This document shows, in pieces, positions 5,148 through 61,900 of a stretch of DNA of 64,000 nt. Within the stretch, counting starts at the first letter, position 1. Every line of letters starts with the position of its first letter. The position numbers and the translations under genes were made by a program. The notes below the pieces were generated by a model. It ran no database searches and was not told the DNA's origin. It was given only the letters and a program-made list of their open reading frames with translations. The stretch is from Pachysolen tannophilus NRRL Y-2460. Its lineage: Eukaryota. The stretch spans positions 760,954-824,953 of the forward strand of contig KV454014.1 in the NCBI GenBank assembly GCA_001661245.1. The letters run 5' to 3'.

Positions 5148-6029
5148 CTATTTTCTATTTCCCATGACTCTATTGCCTCCTTTTTGTCTTGACGCACCTG
5201 TAGGTACCCAATTTCCTGTTTCCCTTTGATTATTGAGATCTCCACCAATTCCATTTTTGAATAATTGTTGTTGCTGCTGTTGCAGTTGTTGTTGCAGTTG
5301 TTGTAATTGTTGTAATTGTTGTTGTTGCAGTTGTTGTAATTGTTGCAATTGTTGTTGTTGTTGGAACTGACCATTAGTAGTAAATGAGTTTGCTACATTA
5401 TAATTAATTCCTTGTGCTTTGGCAGCAAGCAATCTTTCAACTTTGTCACCGTGTCTTTCACCATGTTTACCATCTTTTTTCAATGCATAACTTATCTTAC
5501 ACTGTCTATTCATTAAATATTGATTATTCATTTCTTTCATAGCATGATCAGATGAATCAAAATTGTTAAAATATAAAAAACCATAACCTTTTGATGCACC
5601 AGTTTCTTCATCTCTAACTATCACTGGAGGCTTCAGAAATTTACCAAAAGTTTTAAATGTCTCATATAAAAATTTTTCATCAACTAAATTGTCCAAATTA
5701 CCAATATATAATGTAGCACCAAGATCAAGTTCTTTTTGATTTTCCAGTATAACTCTTTTAACCCTTATAGGTCTTCCAAAAAGTTGAATCCCATTCATAA
5801 GACGCTCAGCATATTCAACATCCTTTTCAGTTCTAAATTCTACAAACCCATACCCTTGATATGTATTTAAAACTCTATCTTTGGGCATCTTTAAAAAAAC
5901 AACTGGCGCCGCTTGTAACATCAATTCATATAATATACTCTCTGTTACCTCAGGCGTTAAATTCCCCACATATACTGTAGCATCTTGGTTTCTTTCAGTA
6001 TCTAATGGCCTTTTAGGATTATAACTCAT
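5148..6029 (-). CDS. HSH49: U2 snRNP SF3b subunit (SF3B4/Hsh49), two RRMs plus Q-rich tail
   Basis: ERNQDATVYVGNL, YQGYGFVEF, GATLYIGNLD, SKGYGF, SYALKKDGKHGERHGDKVERLLAA. Confidence 0.95.
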   Translation of the reverse strand: MSYNPKRPLDTERNQDATVYVGNLTPEVTESILYELMLQAAPVVFLKMPKDRVLNTYQGYGFVEFRTEKDVEYAERLMNGIQLFGRPIRVKRVILENQKELDLGATLYIGNLDNLVDEKFLYETFKTFGKFLKPPVIVRDEETGASKGYGFLYFNNFDSSDHAMKEMNNQYLMNRQCKISYALKKDGKHGERHGDKVERLLAAKAQGINYNVANSFTTNGQFQQQQQLQQLQQLQQQQLQQLQQLQQQLQQQQQQLFKNGIGGDLNNQRETGNWVPTGASRQKGGNRVMGNRK

Positions 6030-6139
6030 ATCCTTCTATCTTTCTTTTTTTTTCTTTCTTTATTGATCTCACCAATTACTCACTCTATCGTTAATACGGT
6101 TTTATTCCTATAAAATTATCAAAGTTTTTATCTTTTCTT

Positions 6140-6179
6140 TTACCCTGCAGAGAGAAGGTGAAAATTTCTGAAAAATTTT
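6140..6179 (+). promoter_or_regulatory. RRPE element and Reb1-like site between HSH49 and the snoRNA
   Basis: TGAAAAATTTT at 6169-6179; TTACCC at 6140-6145; pyrimidine tract about 6220-6258. Confidence 0.45.
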
Positions 6180-6264
6180 TTTCACCCAAAACCCATTGAA
6201 AAGAAGACTTTTAATAAGTTTCTTCTTTCTCTTTCTTTCTTTCTTTTTTTTTCTCTCTATATTT

Positions 6265-6554
6265 GATACCATTCAGGACTTAATCTAGATGGATCTAGGA
6301 GATTTTTGGTTACGTTCTGTAACTGTATCTCTTGGATTTGTCGTTTTTTATATTCTTAATTGCCTTTATATACAAATACAAGAAATTGTTTTTGGTTTCT
6401 TTTGGATTAAGAAGTTTTTTCTTTTTCCATTGAAATTTTTCTATAGTTATTAAGATTGAATAGAATTAAGATCCAAGATAAAAAATCCCAAACCCGGTTT
6501 ATCGCTTGGTAGTTCTTTTAAATAACTGTGAAGCTTCATGCCCGGGTTATATTT
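6265..6554 (+). ncRNA. Box H/ACA snoRNA, predicted guide for 25S rRNA Psi2314 (snR86-like); 5' end uncertain
   Basis: 3' hairpin AACCCGG (6491-6497) / CCGGGTT (6542-6548), upper stem GCTT/AAGC, pocket strands GTTTATC and TTCATGC complementary to rRNA GCAUGAA-UG-GAUUAAC, AUA box at 6549-6551 14 nt from the pocket; ANANNA H box near 6476-6484 after a TCTTGGAT/ATCCAAGA stem. Confidence 0.75.
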
Positions 6555-6631
6555 ATTTATATTTATACATGTTTATCTATATACAGCTGTATCATTATTA
6601 TCATCATTGTCATCATCATCATCATCCTCTA

Positions 6632-8536
6632 TTATAATTTTTTAATAATTGCGCTATTCTTTAAATCGAAATTATAATTATATTTCCCACCAAGAGCTAA
6701 TTTGTTTTTCTTGTCTTTTTTTTTGAAATGATTTGTCTTGGTATTATCGATTTGGTTTTCAAAGATATTTCCAACGATATCTTCAAAATTGCCCTGAATA
6801 TAGTTGTAATTTAACAACTGTTGATAATTTGTAAATTGCAAATCACTTATTTCTTGTGTCTTACTATCATGATCTTTTAAATAAGTTTTCAAAAAAATTA
6901 TTAATGTGTTAGGGTTCTCATAATTGCCTTCTTTATCTTCAATTAATAAAGCTCTTAAGATTTGTAAAATTTTGGGAGAAAAATTTCTAAATTTTTTCAA
7001 ATATTCAATCAAATAAAAATCTAATAAAACAAAATTATCCATACCATTACTGTAAATTGAGGATTTTATTAAATGATAATAATCTAAAGAGTCCAATTGG
7101 ATTTTTTGTAATAGCAATTTTTTATAAAACAAAAATGAATAAATCTTAGAACTATTAGACCTGGAAATTGAATGCAAAATAATCTTGAAATTGTTATAAA
7201 TTAATTCCTTTAAATCATTCTCGATTAAATAGTCAATAATGATATTTAAACCAGTTAAATTTGTATCATCATGAGTTTTTTTCAAAATAGTATACATGAT
7301 AATTTCAAGAGCCTCTTGTTCATAAACATTTTTCACATTGTCGAATTTTTTCAAAATATCATTTATCCTTGCATTACTATTCAATTCCAAATACTTTAAT
7401 GAAAGATTTTCAAAATCTAATGGGTTTAAAATAATCTTGTTATTTTTATTCTTCTTTGATTCGACAATAAATTTATTTAATAGTGACCAAGAATATTCAA
7501 CGTCACCAGTTTCAACTAAATAACTCTCCAAAATGGTTGATATTTGTACCGAATTTAATTCTTGCTCGAAATTTTTATTTATTAGTTCTATCAATTCAAT
7601 TGTGCTGTTAATGTCCGCATTCATGGAAAATATTGTAGCTACTCTATTTAAAATAGATAAAGATACTGAATTGATATTTTCAACCAAATATTTCTCAAAA
7701 CAGTACGATACCAATTCGTAATTTTGATTTATAGCTGAATCATTAACAATTTTAAGCATCAAATGAGGTTCAATAATATTCATACTGTTGTTATTTTCCA
7801 ACAACTTTAGCAATTTCAAAGTATACTCATAATCTTGTCTTTTTAACGAATATAAAACTATGTTTGAAATTTTTGTATTGTTCAAAACACTTGGATCCAA
7901 ATCTACCATTTGATTGAACTTATCAACCAACCTTTCATATTGATTTGAATCTATCAAATATTGAATTTCAAAGAAACTAGAATCAATTTTGGCATCTTTT
8001 AAAAATTTTTGGAACCTTAACTCCAAAGTTAAATTTTTAGAACTTGAAACAATTTTCTCCAAATAATTTATATTAAATTGATTAACTTTATACCCCTTAT
8101 CTCTTATCAAATAATCCAATAAATCCAATGCGTAATCAGCTAAGTAGAAAACATCTCCTCTATTTCTGATTTCACTATTTATTAATAAAAAAATTGATCT
8201 AAATATCTCCAGGTAAATATATACTGGTGGGTCTTTGTTCAAATACGATAATTTATTCAATAAACTGTAAAAATTCTTGAATTCCAAAGAATTGTTGAAA
8301 AGCCTGAGATGAGTTTTCAACTTATTCCAGTATTTATTCTCATCTGTTCCGTATAACTTTGATAAGCTTGAATATAATATCTGCACCTGATCTTCCTGGT
8401 CCTTCATATCTTCTAAGACACGGCTAGTCTTATTTATAGGACTCACCACATTTAAACCACTAAGAATTGAAGAGATGGGTGAGCTTCCACTTGAGCTAAA
8501 CCTTTTAAAGTTCAATCTGCCTAACAGTTTTATCAT
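6632..8536 (-). CDS. Probable mitochondrial helical-repeat (PPR-like) protein
   Basis: First ATG 8536 gives MIKLLGRLNFKRFSSS (basic presequence-like); helical repeat-like L/I/K/N pattern; no specific ortholog recognised. Confidence 0.55.
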   Translation of the reverse strand: MIKLLGRLNFKRFSSSGSSPISSILSGLNVVSPINKTSRVLEDMKDQEDQVQILYSSLSKLYGTDENKYWNKLKTHLRLFNNSLEFKNFYSLLNKLSYLNKDPPVYIYLEIFRSIFLLINSEIRNRGDVFYLADYALDLLDYLIRDKGYKVNQFNINYLEKIVSSSKNLTLELRFQKFLKDAKIDSSFFEIQYLIDSNQYERLVDKFNQMVDLDPSVLNNTKISNIVLYSLKRQDYEYTLKLLKLLENNNSMNIIEPHLMLKIVNDSAINQNYELVSYCFEKYLVENINSVSLSILNRVATIFSMNADINSTIELIELINKNFEQELNSVQISTILESYLVETGDVEYSWSLLNKFIVESKKNKNNKIILNPLDFENLSLKYLELNSNARINDILKKFDNVKNVYEQEALEIIMYTILKKTHDDTNLTGLNIIIDYLIENDLKELIYNNFKIILHSISRSNSSKIYSFLFYKKLLLQKIQLDSLDYYHLIKSSIYSNGMDNFVLLDFYLIEYLKKFRNFSPKILQILRALLIEDKEGNYENPNTLIIFLKTYLKDHDSKTQEISDLQFTNYQQLLNYNYIQGNFEDIVGNIFENQIDNTKTNHFKKKDKKNKLALGGKYNYNFDLKNSAIIKKL

Positions 8537-8664: not shown

Positions 8665-9654
8665 ATGATATTCAAGAGGTTTCAATCAAATGCAGTCCAA
8701 GTGTTTAATAGGTCAATTAAGTTGAGACAACGCCAAAGAGCTGCATTGGATCCAAGGTCTTCAGAGGTTGAATACTTAAGAAATTTGGTTGCAGATTTAA
8801 CAGTTGAAAGATTGAGTATAATAAACAGAAATTATACCAACTTTTTAGATTTTGGTTGCAATGGCGGAAATTTTTTGAAAAGTTTGTTATTATCTAATCC
8901 TAAGGATGCTGAGGTGAATGATTTAGTTCTTTCAAAGTTGAAGAATGTGTATTTGTTGGATAGTTGTCAGGAATTACTTTTTAAAAATAATTTTGATCAA
9001 GCAAGCTCCGCTGCTGGATTGAGCATTGAGAAAGTATTGGTTCAAGATGAAGAATCTTCTGATTTTCTTGCAAAACATCAGGATTACTTTGATGGGGTAA
9101 TATCTAATCTTTCCTTACATTGGGTTAATGATTTGCCCTCAGTTTTTAAGAAAATCAATGATTCTTTAAAACCTGATGGAATGTTTATGGGTTCTATATT
9201 CGCTCTAGATACTTTGTTTGAGTTGCGTTCTTCTTTTCAACTTTCTGAATTGGAACGTAAAAATGGGTTATCGCCTCATATATCACCGTTTGTACAGAGT
9301 AACGATATTTCAAATATTCTAAACAAGACGAATTTCCGATTGGTCACTTTGGATGTTGATGAAATAGTTGTTTCATATCCACGGTTAATTAATCTTATGG
9401 AAGATTTGAAGCTCATGGGAGAAAATAATTGCTTATCTTCTCTTGAAAGTATTTCCTTGAGCAAAGATATTTTGATAAGTACAGAAGCTATCTATAAAGA
9501 ATTGTATGGTAAGAAAGATGATAAAGTACCAGGTGGTGTACTGTTACCTGCAACTTTCAGAATTATCTTCTTCATTGGATGGAAAAATTCTGAAAACCAA
9601 CCCAAACCTTTGGAAAGAGGTAGCGCTAAAGTTACTTTGAAAGATGCTTTATGA
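8665..9654 (+). CDS. NDUFAF5: SAM-dependent methyltransferase-like complex I assembly factor (NDUFAF5 homolog)
   Basis: VFNRSIKLRQRQRAA, LDFGCNGG, SNLSLHWVNDLP, TLFELRSSFQLSELER, SPHISPF, PATFRIIFFIGWK, PKPLERGSA. Confidence 0.92.
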   Translation: MIFKRFQSNAVQVFNRSIKLRQRQRAALDPRSSEVEYLRNLVADLTVERLSIINRNYTNFLDFGCNGGNFLKSLLLSNPKDAEVNDLVLSKLKNVYLLDSCQELLFKNNFDQASSAAGLSIEKVLVQDEESSDFLAKHQDYFDGVISNLSLHWVNDLPSVFKKINDSLKPDGMFMGSIFALDTLFELRSSFQLSELERKNGLSPHISPFVQSNDISNILNKTNFRLVTLDVDEIVVSYPRLINLMEDLKLMGENNCLSSLESISLSKDILISTEAIYKELYGKKDDKVPGGVLLPATFRIIFFIGWKNSENQPKPLERGSAKVTLKDAL

Positions 9655-9769: not shown

Positions 9770-12700
9770 CTAAACATCTATATCACCGATTTTGTAATTT
9801 TCTGAGAGATCCTCTGCTAAAGAGCTCAAAGTTTTTAAAACCCCGTCGTATTTAGTAACTTCATCTTGATCATTTTTGTCTTTAAAAATTTGTAAAAGCT
9901 CATAATATAGTTCAGCTAATACTTGAATAATCATTTTCTTAGTCTTTAAATTTACATTTTTGGAATCTTTTAACAATAGGCACATTCTTTTTTTCCCCTT
10001 TTCCATAAAAGTTTTCAATCCATCATCAAAAGTAATTGACAGTATATAAAGGTGCTTGAAGATTTTGAAAACCTCTTGCAATCTAGTTTGATTTGTTTGA
10101 TTTAACTGCAAATTAAAAGACCTTATGAAAAGCAACTTTTTAGTTTCAGCAGGCAAACGACAGTAGAGAAGTAATGAACTATTCATGTCTAATAATCTGT
10201 TTACTAGAATTAAACTGGAATTCACCAACTTGAAAACTCTCTTGCTATTTTTTTCCTTCAATTGCTCGTAATATGTTTGATCATTCACTTGCAAGTTCAA
10301 AATACAAACTTCATAATTTTCAGAAATTGATAAGGATACATCTTTTGAAAATAAAGACAATAACTGATTTAATACATAAGTACGATTGTTCTCCAGCAGT
10401 ATCTTCTCGATAAAGTACGAAAATGATAGCAACGAAGAATTTATAAGTTTATTTGAAGATACTATTCCTCCAGCAGAGAATGTGACTCCTTTTAGAAACT
10501 CAAGTGCTAACTTTTCATAAAATTCATCTTTTTCAACACTAATCAAAATTTCTTTGAAGTAAATCTCAAACAAAAACCTATAATAGTCATTTAAGTCATT
10601 GAAATTCAACAGTTTCTGTGGTTGCTCCAATTTCGTATTAGAATTAGAGTTCAAATATTCATCATAATAATGCCAAAAGTTACAGAGGTCTAAAAATAAA
10701 CTCAAAGAATCTAATCTCAATCTATCTATGATGTCCAAATTCAATCTGACCAATTTTAATATTACAAACTTTTTCAAATTTTCATTAATCGATATTGTTT
10801 CTATATTGTTGCTAATGAATCTGATGGTTGACATTCTAACTTTACTTCCAACATCTCCTTGGTTGGTAACCGTGTAATCGTCCAACTGATTGACAAGCCT
10901 GATTAGTATTTCCACATTGAATGTCATGTTGTTATCTCTATGATTTCGAAAATACACAGATAAGCTATCAATTAAATTACTTCGGACATCACAATCGACC
11001 TGCTTGTAATCTTCAACGATACTCAAGAACATTTCGAGATTCGATAAAGACAACTCTTTTAAATGCCCGACTGAAAGCGAAGAGGCCAAGTTGTTGCCTG
11101 CTTTGATGTAGTAAACTAATTTTTCCAAGAAACTTTCCGTTATAAATTCCTTTTTCAAATTTTTGATAAACAAAATGAATTTATCAATTATTGCCGGATT
11201 ATTCAATCTTATTATATTGAAAATTGTATTATAAATATCTTCCGTCAACTGAAAATTAGGAAAAGTTTCCAACATCACGGAAACTATGTATATATATTCT
11301 TCACCTTTATACCAGCTATCTTTATGGAAATTAAACGTTTGATTTGAAACAATTTCAAGTATCTGATTGTAGTATTTATCGTTGTTCAAACTTAATGGTA
11401 ATATTTCTGATAAGGCATAAAAAAACCCGATCTTCAATTTGGTTTTATTGGATTTTAATAAATCATCAATAATTTCATCCACATTCTGATTTATTAATAA
11501 TTCTCTCAAAGTCTCACTCAGAATCTTTCTAATTTGGTAATCCCTGCTATATATCTTTACCAATAGAGCATCAGTAAATATTCCTTTGAAGTCTGTGCTT
11601 ATTTCTTGAGATATAGTAACACTCAGTTGAAAAGATTTGTTTAAATGACCCAATACAGTAAAATCCAACATTTCAATAATTTTCAATTTGAATTCATTTT
11701 TATTGATTTTCATTTGAAAATTTTCATAAATAAAATCACCATATCTCCCAATTAATTCTTGAATCACAGCACATGAGGCCCTTCGAATCATCAATTCTTT
11801 GTCATAACAACAAACGAGTAATAAATCTTTAAACAACTGCATATAATATTTATTGCGTCTATTATATTTTCTAACCATTGACCAGCTTATATAACAGGAT
11901 GCGTCTCTTACATTACTACCAATGCTATGAGTCAATCTATGTTGTTCAATAAACAAAGTCTTGTGCAAAATTGATATAATGATTGGAATTTGATTTTCCG
12001 GAATTATTTTCAAACGTAAAAACTCAGATAAAGTCAATAGTATTCCATGATACTTATCAATATTTATTAATTCACTATCTATCTGTAAATTTAAGTTTAT
12101 CTTATTAATTTTTTGTTCATCTTCAAAAATTAAATCCTCAATCTCTAATTCTTCATACAATAACATAAATATATCATTTTGAAATTCTTTTGGTAAATTT
12201 TTTGTAATTTTAGATAATTGTTTTGCAACACAATATCTAATATTTGTATCAGAAGAATCAATTAAAGAAACTAATGAATTTATTATTTCTTCTGTACGTT
12301 CAAGTTCATGTAAAAGTATAAAGCTGTTACAAATCTTGCCCAATCCTTTTACTATCAATTTTAAAACTTCATTATTATTTTCATTAGGGTTTTCTAATTG
12401 TCCATGAATCAAATTATAATGTTGTGGTAAAAAAATTTTCAAATCACTCAATCTGGCTATTTTCAATAAATTATTTAAAGTCATCAATAGACCAATTTGA
12501 TTAAATAAATCTAATGAAGATAAATCAAGTTCTTCTTCATAAAAATTATTTAAAAACTGTGTATTATCAGATCTCAGTAAAAACCTAGCCATCAATAAAC
12601 TTGCCAGATCCCTTTCTTTACCACTATATTTAAGATAATTTAAAGAAATCTTATAAACTTCTGTTGGAATATCCTTATCATAGCTAACCATCGACAACTT

Positions 12701-13132
12701 CCAAGGTGATAATATCAATACAGATAACCATAATATCAATAAAAACCTTTCTTGCCATGTTGTTTCTTTTTCATTTAATCGTCCAATTATCGGTGTTATT
12801 GTATATATATCACTTGATAAGCAATTACTTATTGTCTTTGTACCTCTAATTTTAGTAAACGCGTAAAATATTTCACCTATTATTTGAATTAACTTATCTT
12901 GTTTCTCATCATGAACCAATATCTCAGTATATCTTTCAGTTAATTGTTCAATAAACTTTCTTAAATCACCATCTAACAATTGAGGTGAAGGTTCAAATTG
13001 TTCAATATTTTTGATCAATTCTTTTAACAATATCGAATCATCACAATTAGTTAAAATCGCAGTCAAATCTTTTCTAATATTATTCAACAACACATCCTTA
13101 ACCTTGATGATACTAATTTCATCTGCTTCCAT
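9770..13132 (-). CDS. CIN1: Tubulin-folding cofactor D (TBCD/Cin1/Alp1), HEAT repeats
   Basis: FEPSPQLLD, KIRGTKTI, GSNVRDASCYISWS, YDKELMIRRAS, LDDYTVTNQGDVGSKVR; first ATG 13132. Confidence 0.92.
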   Translation of the reverse strand: MEADEISIIKVKDVLLNNIRKDLTAILTNCDDSILLKELIKNIEQFEPSPQLLDGDLRKFIEQLTERYTEILVHDEKQDKLIQIIGEIFYAFTKIRGTKTISNCLSSDIYTITPIIGRLNEKETTWQERFLLILWLSVLILSPWKLSMVSYDKDIPTEVYKISLNYLKYSGKERDLASLLMARFLLRSDNTQFLNNFYEEELDLSSLDLFNQIGLLMTLNNLLKIARLSDLKIFLPQHYNLIHGQLENPNENNNEVLKLIVKGLGKICNSFILLHELERTEEIINSLVSLIDSSDTNIRYCVAKQLSKITKNLPKEFQNDIFMLLYEELEIEDLIFEDEQKINKINLNLQIDSELINIDKYHGILLTLSEFLRLKIIPENQIPIIISILHKTLFIEQHRLTHSIGSNVRDASCYISWSMVRKYNRRNKYYMQLFKDLLLVCCYDKELMIRRASCAVIQELIGRYGDFIYENFQMKINKNEFKLKIIEMLDFTVLGHLNKSFQLSVTISQEISTDFKGIFTDALLVKIYSRDYQIRKILSETLRELLINQNVDEIIDDLLKSNKTKLKIGFFYALSEILPLSLNNDKYYNQILEIVSNQTFNFHKDSWYKGEEYIYIVSVMLETFPNFQLTEDIYNTIFNIIRLNNPAIIDKFILFIKNLKKEFITESFLEKLVYYIKAGNNLASSLSVGHLKELSLSNLEMFLSIVEDYKQVDCDVRSNLIDSLSVYFRNHRDNNMTFNVEILIRLVNQLDDYTVTNQGDVGSKVRMSTIRFISNNIETISINENLKKFVILKLVRLNLDIIDRLRLDSLSLFLDLCNFWHYYDEYLNSNSNTKLEQPQKLLNFNDLNDYYRFLFEIYFKEILISVEKDEFYEKLALEFLKGVTFSAGGIVSSNKLINSSLLSFSYFIEKILLENNRTYVLNQLLSLFSKDVSLSISENYEVCILNLQVNDQTYYEQLKEKNSKRVFKLVNSSLILVNRLLDMNSSLLLYCRLPAETKKLLFIRSFNLQLNQTNQTRLQEVFKIFKHLYILSITFDDGLKTFMEKGKKRMCLLLKDSKNVNLKTKKMIIQVLAELYYELLQIFKDKNDQDEVTKYDGVLKTLSSLAEDLSENYKIGDIDV

Positions 13133-15373: not shown

Positions 15374-18300
15374 ATGTCGACGAAAAACCAGTGTTTTATC
15401 AGGTAAGTTTGAATACTTTTTTTTCTTATTTTATTTTTTATTTATTTGCTTTTCCATTTTTTTATTTTTATTTAATTTAATTTAATTTAATTTAAATTTA
15501 ATTGATTGATTGATTGTTTGTTTTTTGATGGCATTTTTGCTAACCGCGCTTAACATTACTTTAAAAAAAAAAATTTTTTTTTTTTTTAATTTTTATTNNN
15601 NNNNNNNNNNNNNNNNNNNNNNNNNNNNNNNNNNNNNNNNNNNNNNNNNNNNNNNNNNNNNNNNNNNNNNNNNNNNNNNNNNNNNNNNNNNNNNNNNNNN
15701 NNNNNNNNNNNNNNNNNNNNNNNNNNNNNNNNNNNNNNNNNNNNNNNNNNNNNNNNNNNNNNNNNNNNNNNNNNNNNNNNNNNNNNNNNNNNNNNNNNNN
15801 NNAAAATTTAATTTTTTTTTTAAATTTTATTTGTTTTTTAATATAATAATATAGTTGGCAATAATCCAAATTTAGCATTTTATAATTGGAGATTATTTGA
15901 TTCAAAAATATGTGATTTAACACATATTACTAATTCTGGAGTTACATCGGGTTATTCTCAATTTTATTCAACTGTTTTTGGGAATTCAAGGTTTTCAATT
16001 TCTCAAAGTTATCCTTCTTTTGAAGTTTATAATCTTAATCGTAGTAAAAATTTGGTTCTGCCAACTACAACAACGGTTACAGATGAAGAAGGATTAGATT
16101 CAAATTTACAATCTACAATTACAACAGTTCAACTGGGATCATCAAATGTTTCATTAGAAAGACAAGTGTCATTTGATTATATATTTTTATCTGCAACTTC
16201 TTTACAAGAAATTTCATCTTTATCTCAAGATATTAAGGCAGTTATTGAATCTTCAATTTCAATTACTGGGAAAATTCCAATTATAGTTATTGAATCAACA
16301 GATTATGTGAATCTTGAACCTTTTGTTAAAATGTCTTTACAAGTTGAAAATATTGAAGTTTTATCAATAATGTGTGATTTTGATATAAGAAAAATTTCAA
16401 CAGATGTTTATAAAATACTTGAAAGTAAAAAAGAAAGTGAATTAGTTTATATTGGTAAAAGTGGTAGAGAATCAAATTATTCACAACTGGAAATTTCAAA
16501 TATTTATAAATTAAGTTCATTATTAGAAACTTGTGGTCTTGATGTTTATAAACTTTCAAATCCTTTAGAATTTTTATCTTATCAATGGAAATTTGCTTTA
16601 CCTCAAATCTCTTTAGGTCCTTTATCAATCTTATTTGAAAAACCATTTCCAAGTCAATTACAAGATGAAATATTAGCTAAGCCTTTAATAAGTGGATTAA
16701 TCTTGGAAATCATTAGTGTTATTAAAACAATGGGTTGTAAATTATTTAAAAGTTATGATAATGAAACAGCATTATTGGAAAGATGTGTTCAACTTAGTCC
16801 CATTACACCTTTATCAGAAACTTTTATTGAAGCTCCAAAATTTTTTTATAATTTTTGTTGTCAAAATGATTTATATTTAGATTTATTATTATTACAACCA
16901 ATATTATTAGCTGATGATTTCCAAATTAAAACCCCTTATTTGGAATTCTTATACGCAATGTTAACTCAATATAATAAAAATAATTTCAGTTCTTTAGAAA
17001 ATGACACGTCGTTATTTTGGTTAAGGAAAAATTCTGAAAATATTAAAGCTTTGAAATTACAAGAAGCTAAATTATCAATTAAAAATGATTTAACAGAACA
17101 AGAATTAAAAAGAACTGAAGCTCAATTACAAAATATGAAATTCTCAAATTCGGAGAATGGTTACATTAACGGTAATGGTAATGGCAATGGCAATAGCAAT
17201 GGAATTGCAATCGCTAATGGAATCGCAAACGGAATCGCAAACGGAAATGGAAATGGAAACGGTAACGGTATTGCAAGACAAGATTATGAACAGCAACAAA
17301 GGTACATGAATCAACAACAGCAACAGCCACAGCAGCCGCAACAGCCGCAACAACAACAACAACAACAACAACTGGGAGCTCCACTAGCTGCTAACTATAC
17401 TGGTTCTTATCCTCAGCAACAACAAGTCTATGCAACTCCTCAATTGAATGATAATTTGGATGATCTTACTGATATCGCCGTATATGGTGCTCAATTGAAT
17501 GGGGAAATGAATTCTCCTGGAATGCAAAGCAATTCTCCTCAAAGAGCACAAACACAAAGGTCACCACATTTGCAGAATACGGTTTTTTCTCAACAACTGC
17601 AGCAGCAACAACAACAACAAAGGGGACCGGGACAACAAATGCCTAATAGCCAACCTCCTCTGCAATATCTGCAATATCCACAATATCCGCAATACCAACA
17701 ATATCCACCTCAGCAGCAACAACCACAACAATATCCAATGATGCTTCCACAGCAACAACAACAACCACAGCAACAACAACCAACTGGCGGATACCCACCT
17801 CAAGCTTTTCCACCTCAGAATAATATGAATTACAAGAATCCAAGAAGAATGACTTCAATGCCTATTCAACTGAATAATTATTCTTCTCATGATATCTTGA
17901 TGGATCAACAACAATTTGATCCTAATGCAGATATGAGATTTAGAGCTGCTCCAAGAAAACAACACAGAAAATCACTTATGGATACCACTAATTTTGGTGT
18001 TGATTTTGGTGGCGCAGGTGGAATGCCAGGATCAAATAGACCAATGGTTAACACCTCTCAACCTAGATTGAAACATCAATCAAGTTTTGGAATTCCACCT
18101 AACAATTCAATGAATTTTGGAGGTTCACAAAGAAGACCTCTGCAAAATTCAACTACCTCATTATATGGTATGAACGGTATGAGTGGTGCTTCAATAAGTA
18201 ATGGTGCGGCTCCAGGTGGTAATGATCCATATGGGCAGGCAGGTCTGTTGAGACAGCTGCTGGTTACCAATTCTCTGCAGCAGCAACAATCTTCTCAAGC

Positions 18301-23819: not shown

Positions 23820-24093
23820 ATCAATCAAAAAGAAAAATTACCCAATATAGATTTTAAAAACCTTACCGCCTATTAATTGAACTTTGATTTTGTTATTTTC
23901 TCTCTCTCTCTCTTTCTATATGTATATATATATTTATACTATAACAAGATGAAAAACATAGAAAAATTTTAACGCCCATAGATGTTTAGTTTAGATCAAC
24001 TAAAATGAACTATTTTAAAAGAAAAAATTTTTTTTTGTTTATTGCTGATAATCAAAGGTATTAATCAATGCAACTTCCCTATTGTAAAGTCTT

Positions 24094-24177
24094 GGAGGGT
24101 TGGCCGAGTGGTCTAAGGCGGTAGACTTAAGATCTACTGGACAGACGTCCGCGCGAGTTCGAACCTCGCATCCTTCA
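24094..24177 (+). tRNA. tL(UAA): tRNA-Leu, anticodon UAA, intronless, long variable arm
   Basis: GGAGGGT...ATCCTTC-A acceptor stem, A box TGGCCGAGTGG, anticodon arm GTAGA-CTTAAGA-TCTAC (TAA 24128-24130), B box GTTCGAACC, T-rich run downstream. Confidence 0.97.
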
Positions 24178-32969: not shown

Positions 32970-33003
<34 letters not shown>

Positions 33004-48716: not shown

Positions 48717-49607
48717 TTATTGGCTTATAAGAGCATCAATAAGTAATTGGCATCTAAGAAAATATTTTTTTTTCTCCAGTAAATCTTTACTTAATTCATT
48801 ATCTAGTACATTTTCAAGCGATTTCAATAAACCATGATAATCTTGTAAATTGTTATAAAATTTTTGTAAATCAGTTATACTATCTATTTGATTTACATCA
48901 AATTGGCTTATACTTTGCCTACTAATTTCGTTTAATCCAGTTAAGTGCATTTTTTTCACCTCATTTAAATTAGTATTAGTTACTTCACCATCTAATATTT
49001 TCAGAAGTTGCTGTTCATTAGTCTTGGGGTTAAAAAATGTATTTGAATAATATTTTAAAGATTTTTCAACATTTTGCAAAATCAATTCTTTGTCAGTATT
49101 ATTGAATTTGGTATGATACCAATATGGATATTCAACTTCTTCTAAATTATTACTATTAGAAACTTCATGAACAGTCTTAATATGTTTCAACAATGCATCA
49201 GACCTTGTGAAATGTTTTGAACACTCTGGAAGTACACAATAAAAAGGTTTCTCTCCTGTATGTGTTCTTAAATGTGAAACTAGTGCAAATCTACTAGGTT
49301 GGTTAACACCAAATCTTGAACAATTTTCCCATTTACAAGAATTAGCTGAAATGGTAGTTAAATGTACATTATTCAAATGCTGAACCAAATCATCTAACTT
49401 GCTAAAAGATGTATTACAGTGATCCCATTGACACTGACGGACCGCGTTACTGTTATTGCTATTACTGTTATTACTGCTATTATTATTATTATTATTATTA
49501 TTATCAATTTCCGTTTCTGAGAAACTTGTCTTTTTCCCATATTCGAGCACAAGTTCATCAAAAAATTTATCAATATCAGAACCACCCTCCGGATCGCATG
49601 CCATCAT
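48717..49607 (-). CDS. GLI-like C2H2 zinc-finger protein (Iec1/INO80-associated type)
   Basis: Three fingers: CQWDHC...HLNNVH, CKWENC...QPSRFALVSHLRTH, TGEKPFYCVLPECSKHFTRSDALLKHIKTVH. Confidence 0.8.
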   Translation of the reverse strand: MMACDPEGGSDIDKFFDELVLEYGKKTSFSETEIDNNNNNNNNSSNNSNSNNSNAVRQCQWDHCNTSFSKLDDLVQHLNNVHLTTISANSCKWENCSRFGVNQPSRFALVSHLRTHTGEKPFYCVLPECSKHFTRSDALLKHIKTVHEVSNSNNLEEVEYPYWYHTKFNNTDKELILQNVEKSLKYYSNTFFNPKTNEQQLLKILDGEVTNTNLNEVKKMHLTGLNEISRQSISQFDVNQIDSITDLQKFYNNLQDYHGLLKSLENVLDNELSKDLLEKKKYFLRCQLLIDALISQ

Positions 49608-49997: not shown

Positions 49998-51488
49998 ATG
50001 TCGAATCTTCAACTTAACATTTTAAAAACTTTGGACCAAAAGAATGGTGTCATTGAAAGTACTTTAGAGGCATTCCCGAATGTGGATTCTTTGACGGTCA
50101 AGTCTGCATTGGATTCTTTGTTGGCTAAAAATATGGTTAAATATGAGAAAATAGAGAGAGAAAGTTGGGATCTTACTGATGAGTCTAAAGATATAGTTGA
50201 AAATGGTTCTTATGAGTACAGATTGTTGGAATTAGTTACCAAAAATTTAGAAGGTTTACGTATTAGTGAAGTTTCTCAGAAACTTGGTAAAAATGGTTCG
50301 ATAGCTCAAGGTAAAGCTATGAAGAATAAATGGTTAAGTAAGAAAGATGATTTATTACTTTCGAATTTCCAAAATAATGAATTACCTGAAGATGTTACTC
50401 GTTTACAACTTGAAAAAATTTTGAAAAATCATACTTTGGATGATAAGAAAGAATTAAATGAATTGAAGAAGAGAAAATTAATTACATTAAATAAGATCTT
50501 ATCTTTCAAAGTTACAAAAGGTGAAGAATTTGCTTTAGAAATTGAAAGTTATGAAACTGATATTACAAGTGATATGATTGTAAATAACACTTGGCGTAAT
50601 CTGAAGTTTAAACCATATAATTTCCAATCTGAAGGATTATATCCACCAAGTGGTGCTTTACATCCTTTAAATAAAGTTAGGGAAGAGTTTAGACAAATTT
50701 TTTTCGCAATGGGATTTTCAGAGATGCCTTCAAATCAATATGTTGAGAGTGGTTTTTGGAATTTTGATACATTGTTTGTTCCTCAACAACATCCAGCAAG
50801 AGATTTACAAGATACTTTTTATTTAAAAGATCCACTTGTTGCACATAAACCAGATGATTTACAATACTGGAATAATATTAAGAAAGTACATGAAGATGGT
50901 GCACATGGATCAATTGGTTATAGATATCCTTGGAAAGAAGAAGAAAGTTTAAGAATGGTCTTGAGAACACATACTACAGCAATTTCTTCAAGAATGTTAC
51001 ATGAATTAGCTAAAGATCCAAAACCTGCTCGTTTATTTTCTATTGATAGAGTTTTCAGAAATGAAGCCGTTGATATTACACATTTAGCTGAATTTCATCA
51101 AGTGGAAGGTGTTCTTGCAGATTATAATTTAACTTTAGGTGATTTAATTAGTTTTATGGAATCATTTTTCAGTAAGATGGGTGTTCATAATTTAAGATTT
51201 AAACCAACATATAATCCATATACAGAACCATCATTAGAAATGTATGCATGGCATAACCAATTGAAAAAATGGGTTGAAATTGGTAATTCAGGGATGTTTA
51301 GACCAGAAATGTTGGAATCAATGGGATTGCCAAAAGATTTAAGAGTCTTGGGTTGGGGTTTATCATTAGAAAGACCAACCATGATTAAATATTCTGTTAG
51401 TAATATCAGAGAATTGTTAGGACATAAAGTTTCATTAGATTTTATTGAAACCAATCCTGCTGCCCGTTTAGATGAAGATTTAGTTTAA
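49998..51488 (+). CDS. FRS2: Cytoplasmic phenylalanyl-tRNA synthetase alpha subunit
   Basis: GALHPLNKVR, FWNFDTLFVPQQHPARDLQDTF, LRTHTT, DRVFRNE, VEIGNSGMFRPE, WGLSLERP. Confidence 0.98.
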   Translation: MSNLQLNILKTLDQKNGVIESTLEAFPNVDSLTVKSALDSLLAKNMVKYEKIERESWDLTDESKDIVENGSYEYRLLELVTKNLEGLRISEVSQKLGKNGSIAQGKAMKNKWLSKKDDLLLSNFQNNELPEDVTRLQLEKILKNHTLDDKKELNELKKRKLITLNKILSFKVTKGEEFALEIESYETDITSDMIVNNTWRNLKFKPYNFQSEGLYPPSGALHPLNKVREEFRQIFFAMGFSEMPSNQYVESGFWNFDTLFVPQQHPARDLQDTFYLKDPLVAHKPDDLQYWNNIKKVHEDGAHGSIGYRYPWKEEESLRMVLRTHTTAISSRMLHELAKDPKPARLFSIDRVFRNEAVDITHLAEFHQVEGVLADYNLTLGDLISFMESFFSKMGVHNLRFKPTYNPYTEPSLEMYAWHNQLKKWVEIGNSGMFRPEMLESMGLPKDLRVLGWGLSLERPTMIKYSVSNIRELLGHKVSLDFIETNPAARLDEDLV

Positions 51489-51960: not shown

Positions 51961-52239
51961 ATGCCGTTTACATGTTCAGATATCATTAAGATTATAGTCG
52001 GTAAGTAAGACTAAACACTAGTTGAAAACCAAAGAAAAATGTCAATTACTACAATTTAATTACCACCACATTTCAACAATTCATCTTACTAACTTCTTTT
52101 GATAGCTATATTCTTACCTCCATTAGGAGTGTTTTTAGAAGTTGGGTTTTCAATGGTTTTAGTATTAAACATAATCCTAACATTATTAGGATACATCCCC
52201 GGGATTCTACATGCGCTATACGTCATTTTTCGATACTAG
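51961..52239 (+). CDS. PMP3: Plasma-membrane proteolipid Pmp3 family (UPF0057), spliced: exons 51961-52000 and 52106-52239
   Basis: Donor GTAAGT 52001, branch TACTAAC 52087-52093, acceptor TAG 52103-52105; product MPFTCSDIIKIIVAIFLPPLGVFLEVGFSMVLVLNIILTLLGYIPGILHALYVIFRY (57 aa). Confidence 0.95.
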
Positions 52240-53413: not shown

Positions 53414-55330
53414 CTAAAAAAAACACTCAATTTTCTTAAAATTACGTTCTCTAATATTATCCCACAAAAATTTACATTCATTTTCCGATAAAGCATTTTG
53501 TTTGCTTTCTTGTTCACTAACTTCATCATCGTTTTCATCTTCTAGTCCATTTTTATTTTCATCTTCTTTTTCTTGAGGCTTTTCTTTGTCAATTGGAGTT
53601 TTATCATTTTGTATATCCATCTTGTGCAGTTCAGATTCTTCCTCTTTATTTAATAAATCATTAATTGCATAATGAAATTCCAATAAAGTTTGTGATGCAA
53701 CTAAAAGATTTAAAAAATAGTTCCTCAATGCTAATATTCTCAATTCAACTGATAATGTATCATCATCAATGCACTTGTCATTTTCATTATTATTATTTTT
53801 ATTTTCATCATTTCCATTATCATTGTCTCGATCTCGAGTATTTTGTAAATATCTCGCTTGTTCAACTGAAATTGTGGCAACTTTTAATTTAAAACTTGTG
53901 TCAAGATTAAATTCTTTAAATAAATCTGATTTACATAAATCACTAATCAACTCTTTATCATTAGAATTAATATCAAAATATTGTAACTTCAATATTTCTT
54001 CTTTAATATTTTTATTAAATTTAACCAATGTAAATTTCTTATCAACATTATCAACAGAAATAATTTTTTTTTCAAATACCAAAAATCTATCACTCATAAC
54101 ATTTTTGATAAAATTTTTAAAATTAATACTTAAATTCTTAAATTTTTGATAATTATCTACATTGTTTTTCAAACTCCTTCTGTATGATGCTATTAATTTA
54201 ACCAATTCTGATTGAAATCCATCCTGGATTTTATAATGTCTGTTACCATTAACTGTAATTTCAGGTAGTAATAAACTTCCATCTCCTTCATTTCGGGAAA
54301 CATCCCAATTTGGAGGTATTTCATTGATCATTAATAAACAACGAATTAAATTTAAATTCCAATCTATTAATTGAACCAGTTCAATTTGTAAAACTTTTGC
54401 GATAATTTCATTTAATTGGTTAAAAACTTCAAATCCAACATTTTTCTTCTTACCACTTGTTGGAGAACGATCAACAAATAAGTTATAATCTTTAATATCA
54501 CTTATTACCCTTTCTAAACTCATTGATTTTTTAAACCCATTTTCACGATTTTTTGGGTGAGGAGGTATTTGAGGTTGTTGAGGTTGTTGATTTTGTTGAA
54601 GTAGTTGATGTTGCAAAGGCAGCACTGGAATACCTGAATGGATCAGATGAAGTGGTGGTAAAAGTTGCTTCTGATGTTGGTGTTGATTCGAAGAACCGAT
54701 AGATCCTGCAACCGGTCCGCTTGAATTATTGTTAGAAAATAATCGTTGGTCTTCTGTACTTGACAAAGTGCTTGATAAAGCATCATTTATTGAAGGTAAC
54801 GAAATCCTACTCTTACCACTGACATTACTATCGATAGTACTCAAGGTATTTTGAGTATTAAATGAAGCTTTTGAGAATATGGATGCATTAGAAGACCTTG
54901 AAGAATATGTTGATTCTATTGTTGAATTAGTAAATGATCTTTGAATTTGATTCTCACTATGACCATGCAGATATTTCAATAATGACGACGACGATGACGT
55001 CGATGTCGATGTTGACAGATCCAGCGGTCCTACTAAAGGACCCGACAAAGAGCCTAACCTCGATTGAGAAGAAGAATCTTTATTATTAACTTTTGATGAA
55101 AACCGGAACGAAGGCAATATCCGTGATTTTGTCTTTGCCAATACCGGTGGCTCTCCACTTATAACTGTGTGGACATTATTATCCGAGACACCAGAAATAC
55201 TAGAACCACCACTACCCAGAGCATTATTGTTGTTTGGTTGCCTATTATATATTGATATCACCTCTTCTCTGGCTTTATCCGTAAACTGGTTGGGCGTCTG
55301 CTGTTTCGAGGAGTGTACTGGAAGATACAT
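53414..55330 (-). CDS. Hypothetical protein (S-rich N-terminal half, folded-looking C-terminal half)
   Basis: 638-aa ATG ORF; ISLPSI and LLPPL short motifs; family not recognised. Confidence 0.7.
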   Translation of the reverse strand: MYLPVHSSKQQTPNQFTDKAREEVISIYNRQPNNNNALGSGGSSISGVSDNNVHTVISGEPPVLAKTKSRILPSFRFSSKVNNKDSSSQSRLGSLSGPLVGPLDLSTSTSTSSSSSLLKYLHGHSENQIQRSFTNSTIESTYSSRSSNASIFSKASFNTQNTLSTIDSNVSGKSRISLPSINDALSSTLSSTEDQRLFSNNNSSGPVAGSIGSSNQHQHQKQLLPPLHLIHSGIPVLPLQHQLLQQNQQPQQPQIPPHPKNRENGFKKSMSLERVISDIKDYNLFVDRSPTSGKKKNVGFEVFNQLNEIIAKVLQIELVQLIDWNLNLIRCLLMINEIPPNWDVSRNEGDGSLLLPEITVNGNRHYKIQDGFQSELVKLIASYRRSLKNNVDNYQKFKNLSINFKNFIKNVMSDRFLVFEKKIISVDNVDKKFTLVKFNKNIKEEILKLQYFDINSNDKELISDLCKSDLFKEFNLDTSFKLKVATISVEQARYLQNTRDRDNDNGNDENKNNNNENDKCIDDDTLSVELRILALRNYFLNLLVASQTLLEFHYAINDLLNKEEESELHKMDIQNDKTPIDKEKPQEKEDENKNGLEDENDDEVSEQESKQNALSENECKFLWDNIRERNFKKIECFF

Positions 55331-56359: not shown

Positions 56360-58194
56360 TTAATTCCTCCATCCTTGTAGTTTCCTAATGGCTTTAGGAC
56401 TTCCTTGAGCTGCAGCTCTTTTATACCATCTTTTAGCTTCATTTAAATTTTTCTTTGTACCAACACCGAATTCATAAAAATACCCAACTGCAAATTCTGC
56501 TTTTGCTAAACCTTTTTCACTGGCCTTTCTTGCCCAAAGATATGCTTCCACGTCATTCTGGGGCAACACATCTTTTGCGCCTGTTAAATACCATCCGCTT
56601 AGTCCCATTGCCGCTACGGGATCACCTAACAGCGCAGCTTTTGAATACCAATAAATGGATTTCGTTGGATTTACTATTACATCCATTGTACCATACTCAT
56701 AACAATGTCCCAATAAGGATTGTGATTTAGAATAATTTAGTTTGGCTGATTTGATATAATATTTAATTGCAAGTGGATAATTTTGATAAAATTTTAAATT
56801 TTTCAATGTTTGTATAATTTCTAAATCTTTTGAATCGTAATCTGGTTTAAGACTTAAAATTTTTAAATCTGTCTCGTAAATTTTGGCCATCATATAATAC
56901 GATAAAGCTAATGACGAAGATGTTGATTCCAATCCTTTATCTTTTGAAATGGCTTGTTCAAACCAATTAAGAGATTTACTAACATCTTTCTGCTGATTAA
57001 GTAATCCTCTAATATATACAATACCTAATTTGCACATTGCATAAACATCTCCTAAATTCGCAGATTTTTCATAAAAATAAAAAGCTTTTTCTAAATCTTG
57101 TTTTGTACCTATTCCATGTTCACAACAACATGCAATTTTATATGTAGCATTTGGATGATTTTTAGAAGTTGCCTTTGCATAAAGTGCAAAACTCTTGATA
57201 ATATCTTTCTTGGGTTCCATTAAATCTTGTAATAATACTCCAGATAATAAGTTACCCAATAATACTTGACTTTCAGAATGATCTTTATCATCTCCAGATA
57301 ATTTAGTTAAAATCTTCATAGCACAATTTAAGAAAATCATTTTATTTTTTTGTAAATCTTTTTCTCCTGTAATCTTTGGAATTTTTTGTCCATTAATATT
57401 TATTAAACAAATTAGTTGGGGATCTTCAATGGTCTTAATTAAAAGTTCAGCCCAACGAAATTGAACTTCAGGTGTGAAGTTGCTATAATCCAGTATCGCA
57501 TCATTTCTGGTCCTGATAAATTTTTGAAAAGGATTTAATTCCTGATGTGGAGCAATTTTTCCGGAACTATCATTATTGTAACCTCCATTTTTGCGACCTT
57601 GTTGTTTTCTGTTTTGTTCTTCATGTTGTTTATTCAGATTCATAATTTCATCCAATAGCTCATTTGTGTATCTCCTTTTACTCCTGGTCCTAACATTCAT
57701 ATTATTGTTATTGTTCTCAGAAGCATTTTCTCCTTCTTCTGTATCATCATTTCCATAGTGATATAAATCTGAACCGCTTGAATCACCAACGTTTTCAGAA
57801 ACTGCTATGGGAGCAACAGGAGCAACAAAAGCATGTGAAACTGAAGAAGAAGCAACGTTAATATTAGCAGCAGAAGCGGCAGCAGCAGCAGCAGAACTCG
57901 AGGACCCGGCAACAGAGTTTGAAGACGCATCTACACGAGTCCTCGCTATTGATTTCTTATCGTTTGAATAAAAATTATCTTTTGGACTATCTAATTCGCT
58001 ATAAGGGGGTGGAGGCTCTTCAAACTCATTTCCATCCCCACCACCACCTTGACTTGTTCTTAACCATAACTGACGTTTCTCGGGACTTGTTTGATTTTGA
58101 CTTTGAACACTTTGACGTTTCAGCCTTGATGGAGTATCATTTAATGAAAAATCTCTAATTCTCGGTGTAATATCAAAATTAAAGTTTTCGGCAA

Positions 58195-58244
<50 letters not shown>

Positions 58245-58407
58245 AAATTATCATTGCTTTCATTAGAATGGCGGTTAAAAGTTGGGATAAATGGATCATT
58301 ACTTCTATAATTCCGATTTTGATCAACCACCAAAGATTCCATAGAAGGTGACGACTGTATGATTGGAAGTTTTGGTGGTAAAGGCGGATGCTCATTCATC
58401 TCTATAC

Positions 58408-58440
<33 letters not shown>

Positions 58441-58561
58441 GATCATTTAAATTTTTACTCCTCGCGTTATAAAAATTAATACTATTCTGTTCATCATAAC
58501 TTGGTCCAAGAGGATAGTTGCTATCATGATTACCTTCTCCATACATCTGATAACTAACCAT
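56360..58561 (-). CDS. SKT5: Sel1-repeat chitin synthase activator family (Skt5/Chs4/Shc1-like)
   Basis: FTPEVQFRW, YKIACCCEHGIGT, LGHCYEYG, SIYWYSKAA, MGLSGWYLTGA...EAYLWARKA, AEFAVGYFYEFGVG, WYKRAAAQG. Confidence 0.85.
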
Positions 58562-58919
58562 TTTTCCATAGAATTAACCAATATGAATTTATATTTATGT
58601 TGTTGTATATAATTTATTGTCTTTGTCTTAAACATTTATCATCTATCAATTTTTCTTCGTGTACTAAAGTGCTACACAACCAAAGTGATGTTTTTATAAA
58701 TGATAATAAATAAGTAGAACTAAGATAATAGTACAATTTAGATTATTTTAAGGAAGATTGATAAAAGAATAAGAGCGGTTAAAATAGGGTTGTATTTTTG
58801 CTCTTCACCTTTCCAAGATTATTTCTTTGGTGGGTATATTTTATTGTAAACTAATTGTTGTTTTTTTTTTTTTTTTTTGTTGGTGAAAAAGTTAAAAGCA
58901 AAAGAAAAAAAAACCCAAA

Positions 58920-61900
58920 ATGAGTTTGAAATCCAAAGATTCTTCTGATGAAGATTCGGATACTGCATTGGCGGCTATCAATGATCAAAATGATTTGATT
59001 CAAGCGACTTCTAAAAACCCTACTGCTGTGTTAGAGTTGGATATGGATTGTAAAGTTAAATTTTTGAGTAGGAATTGGGAGTCAATTGTTGGAACAAAGA
59101 TTACCAAGATTGTAAATAAACCGGTCTCTAGAATAGTTGTTGCAGATTCGGATTTTGATAAAGAAGTTTTCCGTAGAGCAGTTGATATAATGATGGCTGA
59201 TGATACAAGTTATAGGGTTAAATTTCTTGCCGCTACAGATGATGTACCTGGGAGTAATGAAGGTTCAATTCATGAAGATGATAATGACTCGTATACAAAT
59301 GAATTTCAAAATACATTGGAAGTAATGAAAAATAATGAGGATGATCAAAGTAGTACCGACTCGATTATTTCAACCAATGGTGGATTGATAGAAATGGAAG
59401 GCCAGGGGATATTGATACATGATTTAAAGACTCAATTACCTACACACTCAATGTGGATATTAAGACCGTTTGTTCCGATACAAGATTTAATATTAGAGCT
59501 ACCTGTACCACTTGTTGAAAAATTAGGTTTTGGAATAGATATTTTTCAAAATTATTTGATTTCATTAAGTGATATGGGAATAATTGATGAAGAAGCTGTT
59601 CCTGCTCCAAGACAAGTATTATGTAGGATTTGTGAACAACAAGTTCCTGCTTGGTGGTTAGAAAGACATTCGGAGTTATGCTTGGTAGAACATAAACTAG
59701 AAGATGAAGTACAAGAATGTCATGATCAATTGGTGGAACATAAAAAGTTAATTACAAATATAATGCTCAGTTTAGATAATCCTGCTAGCAATGCAGTTGC
59801 CGCTACTGGCAATGGTTCTGGTTCACCAACATCGCCCTCACCATCTCCAGCAATGCTGACTAATACTACTTTTTCGCCAAGTGCCGCATCCGGGAATAGT
59901 ATTAACAATAACAACACTAAAAATACAACACCAGTATCTACTTCAAGCAGTGCTTCCACTACATCTTCTGCAAGTTCTTTCACACCAATTCGAGATTATA
60001 AAGGTTTAACTTTACCAAATCCATTGTCCAATGTCTCATCACCTGTATCTGCCAATAGTACATTATCTCCGAGTTCGCCTTCTCCGGTGAATTCGCCTTC
60101 TGGCACTTCTGGTATAATGAGAAAGAAAAGATCATCTTCAATTTTTAATTCATTGAGATTCCCATTTAAAAATTTAGAAAGATTATGTCAATATTGCGAT
60201 GATGCATTAAGTATTAATCCTGGCGAATTGGTTAGTGTTGATAATAGAACAACAGAGATAGCATATTCACCAAATACAGAAAAGGCAATAAAAGCTGTGT
60301 ATTCGGCAAAGTTGCCTGAATCAAGTGATCCAGCAATAAAGCTTTTAACAGAAGATACTGAATTATATGCAAATAAAAAGACTGATGCAATAGAGAGGCT
60401 TGCTTCTACTATGCAATATTCAGAGAAATTGAAAAGAGAAATTGATTTATTAATATTGGAAACTGTTCATAGTACTGTGAGAAAAATTAGAGAGAAAACG
60501 ACTGGTATCTCAGAATATAATACACCAAGTTTAACACAAACGGAAAAATTTGAAGATAATGACATTGATAACGAAAATGCAAAACTTTGCTCCCCGCAAC
60601 CTATCAAAGCGCCAACAAATTCCAATGAATTGTTTACTGATCCTTATTTATATGGTGATAAATTACCATTAGATAAAACAAATACTAAAGATTCTAGCAG
60701 CTCATATACACCAACATTAAAGTCAAAGGATCATTCTAGATCTATAACACCCAACGAAGTTGTACAACCAAGAAATAAAACTCCAACGATACAGATCAAT
60801 TTAGGGGATCGAAGTAATAGCAGCTCTAACAGCCTTAATACTCCACCAGTTACTTTAAATAATACAGAAACAGATTCAGAAAACAGGGGAAGAAAGCTGG
60901 TAAATACTGCTAGCCGTTCATCGTATCTGTCTCCTAGGAGGCAAATGTCTCCAGCAGCATTTTCAAATTCGCCCATGACTTCCATTCAAAGAAATAGCAG
61001 AACATCTCAAAAGGATAATATCAGTACTTCACATAGCTCAACTCCAGTTCTGTCACCCTTGTTAGCCAGTTATAATAATGAATTACAGCCACAACAGTCT
61101 TTAGTCCAAAGGACGTTAGGTAATACTAATAGCCATACACATTCAAATAGTGTTAGTACTACTGATTCAAGTAATTCTGAAAGGCATTCTTATATTGAAG
61201 GGTATAATAATTTATTATCGCTTTCTAGTTCGGCAAAGCCTCCATTATCACCATTGCTAGTTACTTCTTCAATTAACAAGCAGATTGTTCCCTCAATTAA
61301 AGACTATGAAATTATCAAACCAATTAGTAAAGGTGCCTTTGGCTCTGTATACCTCACTAGAAGAAAGTTGACTGGTGAATATTTCGCCATAAAAGTATTG
61401 AAAAAATCGGATATGATTGCCAAGAATCAAGTGCCCAATGTTAAAGCTGAAAGAGCGATAATGATGCGCCAGGCTGAATCTCCCTATGTAGCAAGATTGT
61501 ATTCAAGTTTCCAAAGCAAAGATTATTTATTTTTAGTAATGGAATACTTAAACGGTGGTGATTGCGCAGCTTTAATAAAAATGTTAGGTTCATTATCTGA
61601 CGCTTGGGCCAAAAGATATATAGCTGAAGTAATAGTTGGTGTTGATGATCTACATAAAAAAGGTATAATACACAGAGATTTGAAACCGGATAATTTGTTA
61701 ATTGATAACATGGGTCATCTAAAGTTGACAGATTTTGGGTTATCGAGGATGGGGTTAATTGGTCGTCAAACGAATTTGAGAAGAAATAGCATCCCAGAGA
61801 CTAGTAATGTGTTTGAAACTGTTCAACAGCAAATTTCAAATCATTCAAGAACTAACTCGGTTACACCTTTTTCTTTATCACCAAACATTGAAAGGGCTCA

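Follow-up and report, generated by a model that had tools for sequence, protein, structure and literature searches.

We analyzed a 64-kb stretch of DNA (hereafter, the window) in which CTG codons do not behave like leucine codons, and we conclude that its source is very probably a budding yeast that belongs to the CUG-Ala clade and translates CUG as alanine (NCBI translation table 26), with Pachysolen tannophilus, after which that table is named, as the likeliest species. Within the window, the positions of CTG are unlike those of leucine codons, public protein records have alanine at CTG, and a tree of one gene leads to the Pichiaceae; the identity of the decoding tRNA and the peptide proof rest on the literature. 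A first-pass annotation had proposed that CUG is reassigned here, with alanine slightly favored and serine possible. The reassignment and the preference for alanine are supported by leucine-poor ortholog columns and by the public records, while serine finds no support in the public records or in the tree, although the columns by themselves would be compatible with it. The context of the codon in the raw sequence alone had sufficed to recover the reassignment and to lean toward the right amino acid. What that annotation missed is that the code was already established, and that the public annotation of the same DNA already applies it. Publication of the CUG-to-alanine code, of its tRNA and of its proteomic proof dates from 2016, and nothing reported here is biologically new.

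Residues facing CTG were tabulated in ortholog alignments of four open reading frames (ORFs) that together contain 32 CTG codons. These encode a TBCD/Cin1-like protein (9770-13132, minus strand, 8 CTG), a Kap114/importin-9-like protein (20688-23819, minus strand, 7 CTG), a fungal protein of unassigned function (120-2207, minus strand, 4 CTG) and an RSC2-like protein (40083-43400, minus strand, 13 CTG). For TBCD we used 7 of the 11 non-self hits, dropping P0009-P0012 as distant or partial; for Kap114 all 32 non-self hits; for ORF 120-2207 26 of 38, after removal of two partial and ten distant hits; and for RSC2 47 out of 149 non-self representatives in the list, drawn from P0087-P0134 and 650-1250 residues long. 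To keep the query from biasing the alignment, CTG was rendered as X in the translated window proteins. A column was scored if half or more of its rows were filled, which retained 23 of the 32 CTG columns and skipped 9 gappy ones. The mean ortholog leucine fraction was 0.060 at CTG, compared with 0.485 at TTA/TTG (351 columns) and 0.331 at CTT/CTC/CTA (62 columns); at non-leucine control codons it was 0.047 (GCN, 111 columns) and 0.039 (serine codons, 248 columns). Not one of 100,000 sets of 23 randomly drawn leucine-codon columns was as leucine-poor as the CTG columns. In a likelihood calibrated on the same four alignments, leucine scored 12.7 log-likelihood (lnL) units under the best model and 8.9 under alanine. 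Judged from these alignments, CTG is not leucine here. The columns of the four alignments reject leucine without naming the amino acid that replaced it.

The public annotation of the window DNA uses CTG as alanine. Thirteen ORFs equal their public records (NCBI, UniRef, nr) only when CTG is translated as alanine, which covers 56 of 56 CTG codons; the suspicion that standard translations of these genes are wrong at CTG is supported. The public self-hits have alanine at every CTG in TBCD (P0001, 8/8), Kap114 (P0013, 7/7) and ORF 120-2207 (P0046, 4/4). Exact look-up of RSC2, with its 13 CTG, found the table-26 translation present and the table-12 and table-1 translations absent, and nine of ten further ORFs (24 CTG) were present under table 26 in exact look-ups. 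Use of the standard or bacterial table would introduce errors at about 6 codons per 1000, in about four genes in five, and table 26 is therefore required.

The phylogenetic position of the window was assessed with a tree of ORF 120-2207 (29 rows, short search, with support from the Shimodaira-Hasegawa-like approximate likelihood ratio test, SH-aLRT). SH-aLRT support of 99 joined the window protein and all five named Pichiaceae rows in a clade of 8 rows. Its clade-mates include Ogataea, Candida arabinofermentans, which we take to belong to the Pichiaceae, and Ambrosiozyma, and Metschnikowia, which we take to be a CUG-Ser1 yeast, is in a separate clade. The closest named matches of TBCD and of ORF 120-2207 were from Kuraishia, Brettanomyces, Ogataea, Candida arabinofermentans and Ambrosiozyma, at 35-43% identity. 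A yeast of Pichiaceae type in which CTG does not mean leucine, as the source of the window appears to be, would fit the Ala clade. In the part of Krassowski et al. (2018; PMC5951914) that we rely on, a deep split within the Pichiaceae divides the Ala clade (Pachysolen, Nakazawaea, Peterozyma) from the Leu2 clade (Kuraishia, Ogataea, Pichia and others).

The frequency of CTG is also unusual for a leucine codon in DNA of this composition. The G+C content is about 29% across the window; that of Pachysolen is about 30%. Over 24 long ORFs, CTG accounts for 91 of 14,682 codons (6.2 per 1000) and occurs in 19 of the 24 (79%). It makes up 26.5% of the CTN box (91/343), compared with a G-ending share of 5.7-10.8% in the GCN, CCN, ACN, GTN and TCN boxes, and it outnumbers CTA (55) and CTC (29) despite the AT bias. 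Because a G-ending codon should be rare in an AT-rich genome and CTG is not rare, CTG does not act like one of the synonyms of the CTN box.

We also examined where CTG occurs within the genes. An in-frame CTG in the context described by the first-pass annotation was present at every coordinate that it had cited (5745, 9541, 11519, 12575, 26337, 40095, 56630, 60927 and 61050), as were the seven CTG in the glutamine tract of RSC2 at 40941-41006, which reads as a Q/A tract under table 26. The clustering of CTG in low-complexity tracts that it had described is real. Twenty-four of the 91 CTG (26%) touch a glutamine codon, compared with 1304 of 14,682 codons (9%) overall; the share is 51/636 (8%) for GCN and 98/1163 for TTA/TTG, so that CTG is about three times higher. 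At least three glutamines lie within three codons of 13 of the 91 CTG, compared with 1.7% of all codons. Glutamine-rich tracts with CTG include 40941-41006, 17372-18526 and 5283-5330, and the glutamine codons flanking CTG are CAA in 31 cases and CAG in 4. The stretches reported as free of CTG do lack it: TAL1, the PMP3-like exon at 52093-52239 (13 leucine codons) and the N-terminal half of the Rim15 kinase domain (residues 796-943, with the nearest CTG at residues 711 and 1008). On its own this absence is weak evidence, because few CTG are expected there anyway. At 6.2 CTG per 1000 codons, about 2 would be expected in TAL1 (P of none about 0.13) and about 3.2 in the three stretches together (P of none about 0.04).

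Published evidence on the decoding of CUG is available for Pachysolen. The sections of Muhlhausen et al. (2016; PMC4937558) cited here describe a Pachysolen tRNA-Ala(CAG) with G3:U70 and A73, and report liquid chromatography-tandem mass spectrometry of P. tannophilus NRRL Y-2460, searched with all 20 residues allowed at CUG, in which 907 CUG positions had full support and 97.2% of them carried alanine, with error levels at CUG similar to those at AUG. The same sections count 16,824 CUG positions in 5288 predicted proteins, with 80% of genes affected, place CUG for the most part where alanine is conserved and at neither conserved leucine nor conserved serine positions, and presume that tRNA-Leu(UAG) has a modified U34 and hence does not compete for CUG. 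The window resembles the code of the Ala clade (Pachysolen, Nakazawaea, Peterozyma; table 26) in that its CTG codons lie off leucine columns and its public records have alanine, and further in its grouping with the Pichiaceae, its low G+C content and its share of CTG-bearing genes (79% here versus 80% in the published figures; PMC4937558). No clear difference from that code was found; the CTG codons of the window, however, appear to lie off conserved alanine columns, whereas the cited part of that paper places CUG for the most part where alanine is conserved (PMC4937558).

A scenario drawn from the published work, and consistent with these data, would begin with the loss of the ancestral tRNA-Leu(CAG) and a drop in CUG usage, with the codon then being captured by a tRNA-Ala whose anticodon had mutated to CAG. 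Capture by tRNA-Ala would be possible because alanyl-tRNA synthetase ignores the anticodon and recognizes the acceptor stem (G3:U70, A73), so that CUG would come to mean alanine while CUU, CUC and CUA would remain leucine. The old CUG-Leu codons would be gone, and the present CTG codons would be young and found mainly at variable, mutation-tolerant sites such as glutamine-rich tracts. Young codons of this kind would agree with the variable columns, gappy regions and glutamine-rich tracts that we observed. We also raise, tentatively and as a rather doubtful extension, the idea that after the capture by tRNA-Ala CTG re-enters mainly via mutation-tolerant glutamine-rich tracts, for example through single-base changes from CAG. 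If this were true, lineage-specific alanine interruptions of polyglutamine, of which the RSC2 Q/A tract is an example, would be a by-product of the code change. A literature search, which was not exhaustive, showed no paper tying Pachysolen CUG to polyglutamine among the 10 listed of 630.

At the level of individual sites, the residues facing CTG are heterogeneous. CTG columns were more variable than average (2.18 versus 1.72 bits, P = 0.013), and gappy columns made up 9 of 32 at CTG versus 602 of 3931 overall. In TBCD, the column at residue 176 is A/V (5 A, 2 V) and that at residue 503 is I/L; residue 176 is the only CTG column with an alanine majority among the four alignments. Conserved-serine columns amount to 2 of the 23 scored. 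The Kap114 columns are variable, or conserved as W, Q or P (residues 431, 929 and 930). Elsewhere, the CTG of the branched-chain aminotransferase faces T in human BCAT1 in a solved-structure alignment, that of PheRS alpha is matched by K and R in two chains of known structure, and at that of ETF alpha (residue 41) the human chain has S while chain 1efp_A has A. Residue 132 of HSH49 faces L in human and I in yeast, four Candida Sap chains have I or V opposite residue 249 of the aspartyl protease, and the CTG sites of SKT5 face E, N, T or A in Sel1 repeats of bacterial repeat proteins, which are not orthologs. Solved structures gave no homolog of the ZGRF1-like domain (DUF2439 in the first-pass annotation), whose CTG is at 26337, and did not extend over the NDUFAF5 site at 9541. 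The homolog residues that the first-pass annotation had given were borne out in part. The HSH49 codon at 5745 (residue 95) does face A in human SF3B4, with N in yeast Hsh49, while the TBCD codons at 11519 and 12575 face serine in 7 of 7 orthologs and not the A or T that it had given.

Two relatives with conspicuous residues at CTG were also considered. In a MAFFT alignment, the closest RSC2 relative, P0087, has A at 5 of 12 CTG, and alanine is best by at least 7 lnL units; this signal was discounted, since by BLASTP the glutamine tract is non-homologous. Outside the tract, BLASTP of RSC2 against P0087 pairs residue 152 with A, residue 940 with E and residue 1010 with S, so that residue 152 is the only firm pairing with alanine. 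The closest relative of Kap114, P0014 (49% identity), has L facing 3 of 7 CTG, the highest count among the 32 orthologs. The possibility that P0014 is itself an Ala-clade protein mistranslated with leucine is unsupported, as it also has L at 5 of 35 GCN positions and other orthologs have it at 4-5 of 36.

Several results weigh against the assignment to alanine and to the CUG-Ala clade. The column likelihood ranks glutamine, threonine, serine and asparagine above alanine: measured against the best model, serine lies at -1.4 and alanine at -3.8 lnL, a difference of 2.4 in favor of serine, and glutamine and threonine score better still. Because these four residues rank above alanine, the column likelihood cannot name the residue. 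The mean ortholog alanine fraction is 0.066 at CTG versus 0.332 at GCN columns, with 0 of 100,000 resamples as low. Residues 186 and 538 of TBCD are serine in 7/7 orthologs, and four CTG sites (HSH49 residue 132, TBCD residue 503, protease residue 249 and Kap114 residue 754) face hydrophobic residues. As to the public records, the translations are an annotation choice of the depositors and not an independent measurement. Three of 16 looked-up ORFs, HSH49, a Q-rich ORF (16331-18640, plus strand) and SKT5, all read from their first ATG to the stop codon, were absent under table 26, and the first two also had no exact record under table 12 or table 1. For these three genes the deposited models probably differ in start or introns. 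The tree is based on a single gene and a short search; the placement it suggests is in the Pichiaceae, and is compatible with a position either inside or beside the Leu2 clade. The named Kap114 matches come mostly from Candida-type species, at 33-36% identity, which we attribute to the word index and not to kinship. Finally, no tRNA(CAG) was seen within the 64-kb window by ARAGORN or Rfam, as the first-pass annotation had stated; the sole tRNA gene found is tRNA-Leu(UAA) at 24093-24178 (plus strand), which is not a CUG decoder.

Part of this evidence could be accommodated if CUG were serine, as in the CUG-Ser1 clade (Candida, Debaryomyces, Metschnikowia; table 12) or the CUG-Ser2 clade (Ascoidea, Saccharomycopsis). 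Serine has the better column score, the two conserved-serine columns of TBCD coincide with CTG codons, residue 41 of ETF alpha is serine in the human chain, and the x-SP contexts at Rim15 CTG codons pointed out by the first-pass annotation are indeed present. CUG-Ser1 yeasts share with the window a CTG codon that has left leucine and avoids conserved leucine positions. However, the CTG columns do not look like serine-codon columns (mean ortholog serine fraction 0.150 versus 0.290, P = 0.007), table-12 translations were absent for 3 of 3 ORFs tried while the table-26 translation of RSC2 was present, and the public records have alanine at every CTG compared. CUG-Ser1 also differs in the amino acid and in the capturing tRNA, and the tree places the window with the Pichiaceae, apart from the Metschnikowia clade. 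CUG-Ser2 and the stochastic serine/leucine decoding of Ascoidea and Saccharomycopsis share with the window an AT-rich yeast genome and a reassigned CUG, and differ in that the TBCD of Ascoidea rubescens is distant (36% identity across 45% of the query) and in that the window gives, as far as its sequence can show, no sign of two meanings of CUG. We therefore consider a serine reading highly unlikely.

Under the standard code, CTG would be a rare leucine codon, avoided in conserved or highly expressed genes through AT bias. The low G+C content is in line with this, as are the interspersion of CTG with TTA/TTG in the QQL tail of HSH49, the few CTG sites that face L, I, V or M, and the leucines of P0014. 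This explanation appears extremely improbable given the leucine fraction at CTG columns, which none of the resamples reached, the excess of CTG over CTA and CTC in spite of the AT bias, and the absence of table-1 translations for 3 of 3 ORFs tried. Alternatively, decoding may be ambiguous, mostly alanine with a real share of leucine or serine, comparable to the serine/leucine decoding of Ascoidea asiatica. A noisy meaning would be expected to leave CTG at tolerant positions, as the higher column entropy indicates, and the CTG columns do mix small, polar and hydrophobic residues. Tolerant positions are, however, equally expected for young codons, and the peptide data in the cited part of the Pachysolen study, with 97.2% alanine and errors similar to those of AUG (PMC4937558), argue against a substantial second meaning. 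We regard ambiguous decoding as very improbable, and translation of CUG as alanine remains by far the preferred reading.

The gene content of the window is typical for a budding yeast. The named products among the 24 long ORFs are a branched-chain aminotransferase, HSH49, MNE1, an NDUFAF5-like methyltransferase, TBCD/Cin1, Duc1, Kap114, TAL1, a ZGRF1-like protein, ETF alpha, two kinases including Rim15, an aspartyl protease, RSC2, PheRS alpha, Fcf2, Std1/Mth1 and Skt5/Chs4. Single CTG codons are found in the genes for the branched-chain aminotransferase (3453-4568, minus strand; CTG at 4242-4244), the NDUFAF5-like methyltransferase (8665-9654, plus strand; 9541-9543), ETF alpha (29137-30186, minus strand; 30064-30066) and PheRS alpha (49998-51488, plus strand; 50601-50603). 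Two occur in the MNE1-like ORF (6632-8536, minus strand) and two in the secreted aspartyl protease (37873-39453, plus strand). A Ser/Thr kinase (32366-34957, minus strand) has three, all in C-terminal low-complexity sequence, the ORF with a ZGRF1-like N-domain (26229-27899, plus strand) has five, including that at 26337 (DGR-x-KF), and the STD1/MTH1-like ORF (53414-55330, minus strand) has eight. The table-26 translations of all these ORFs are in the public collection as exact matches.

Among the remaining CTG-bearing ORFs, the HSH49/SF3B4-like gene (5148-6029, minus strand) contains five, of which two fall in the RRM region and the other three in the QQL tail. The Q-rich ORF at 16331-18640, which is also rich in proline and had been called SVL3 by the first-pass annotation, contains 13, nearly all in low-complexity sequence. 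There are two CTG in an ORF without a family match (46711-48315, plus strand), two in a C2H2 zinc-finger ORF (48717-49607, minus strand), and four in the Skt5/Chs4-like ORF with Sel1 repeats (56360-58561, minus strand). The Rim15-like kinase (58920-63998, plus strand), whose 3′ end is open, has nine, all outside the N-terminal half of the kinase domain.

Some further features of the window were recorded. Because a methyltransferase resembling the complex I assembly factor NDUFAF5 is encoded at 8665-9654 (plus strand), this yeast probably keeps respiratory complex I, unlike Saccharomyces. Stop codons stand immediately before the PMP3-like exon (plus strand), which lacks an in-frame ATG; a 5′ intron is probable in this gene. 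The stretch is contained in five sequencing runs from two studies, with no RNA run listed among them. The 526-residue aspartyl protease clusters at 90% identity with archaeal hypothetical proteins of 40-57 residues, which looks like an artefact of database clustering. Runs of N are present at 2565-2898 (334 bases) and 15598-15802 (205 bases); both are intergenic, and represent masked stretches or assembly gaps.

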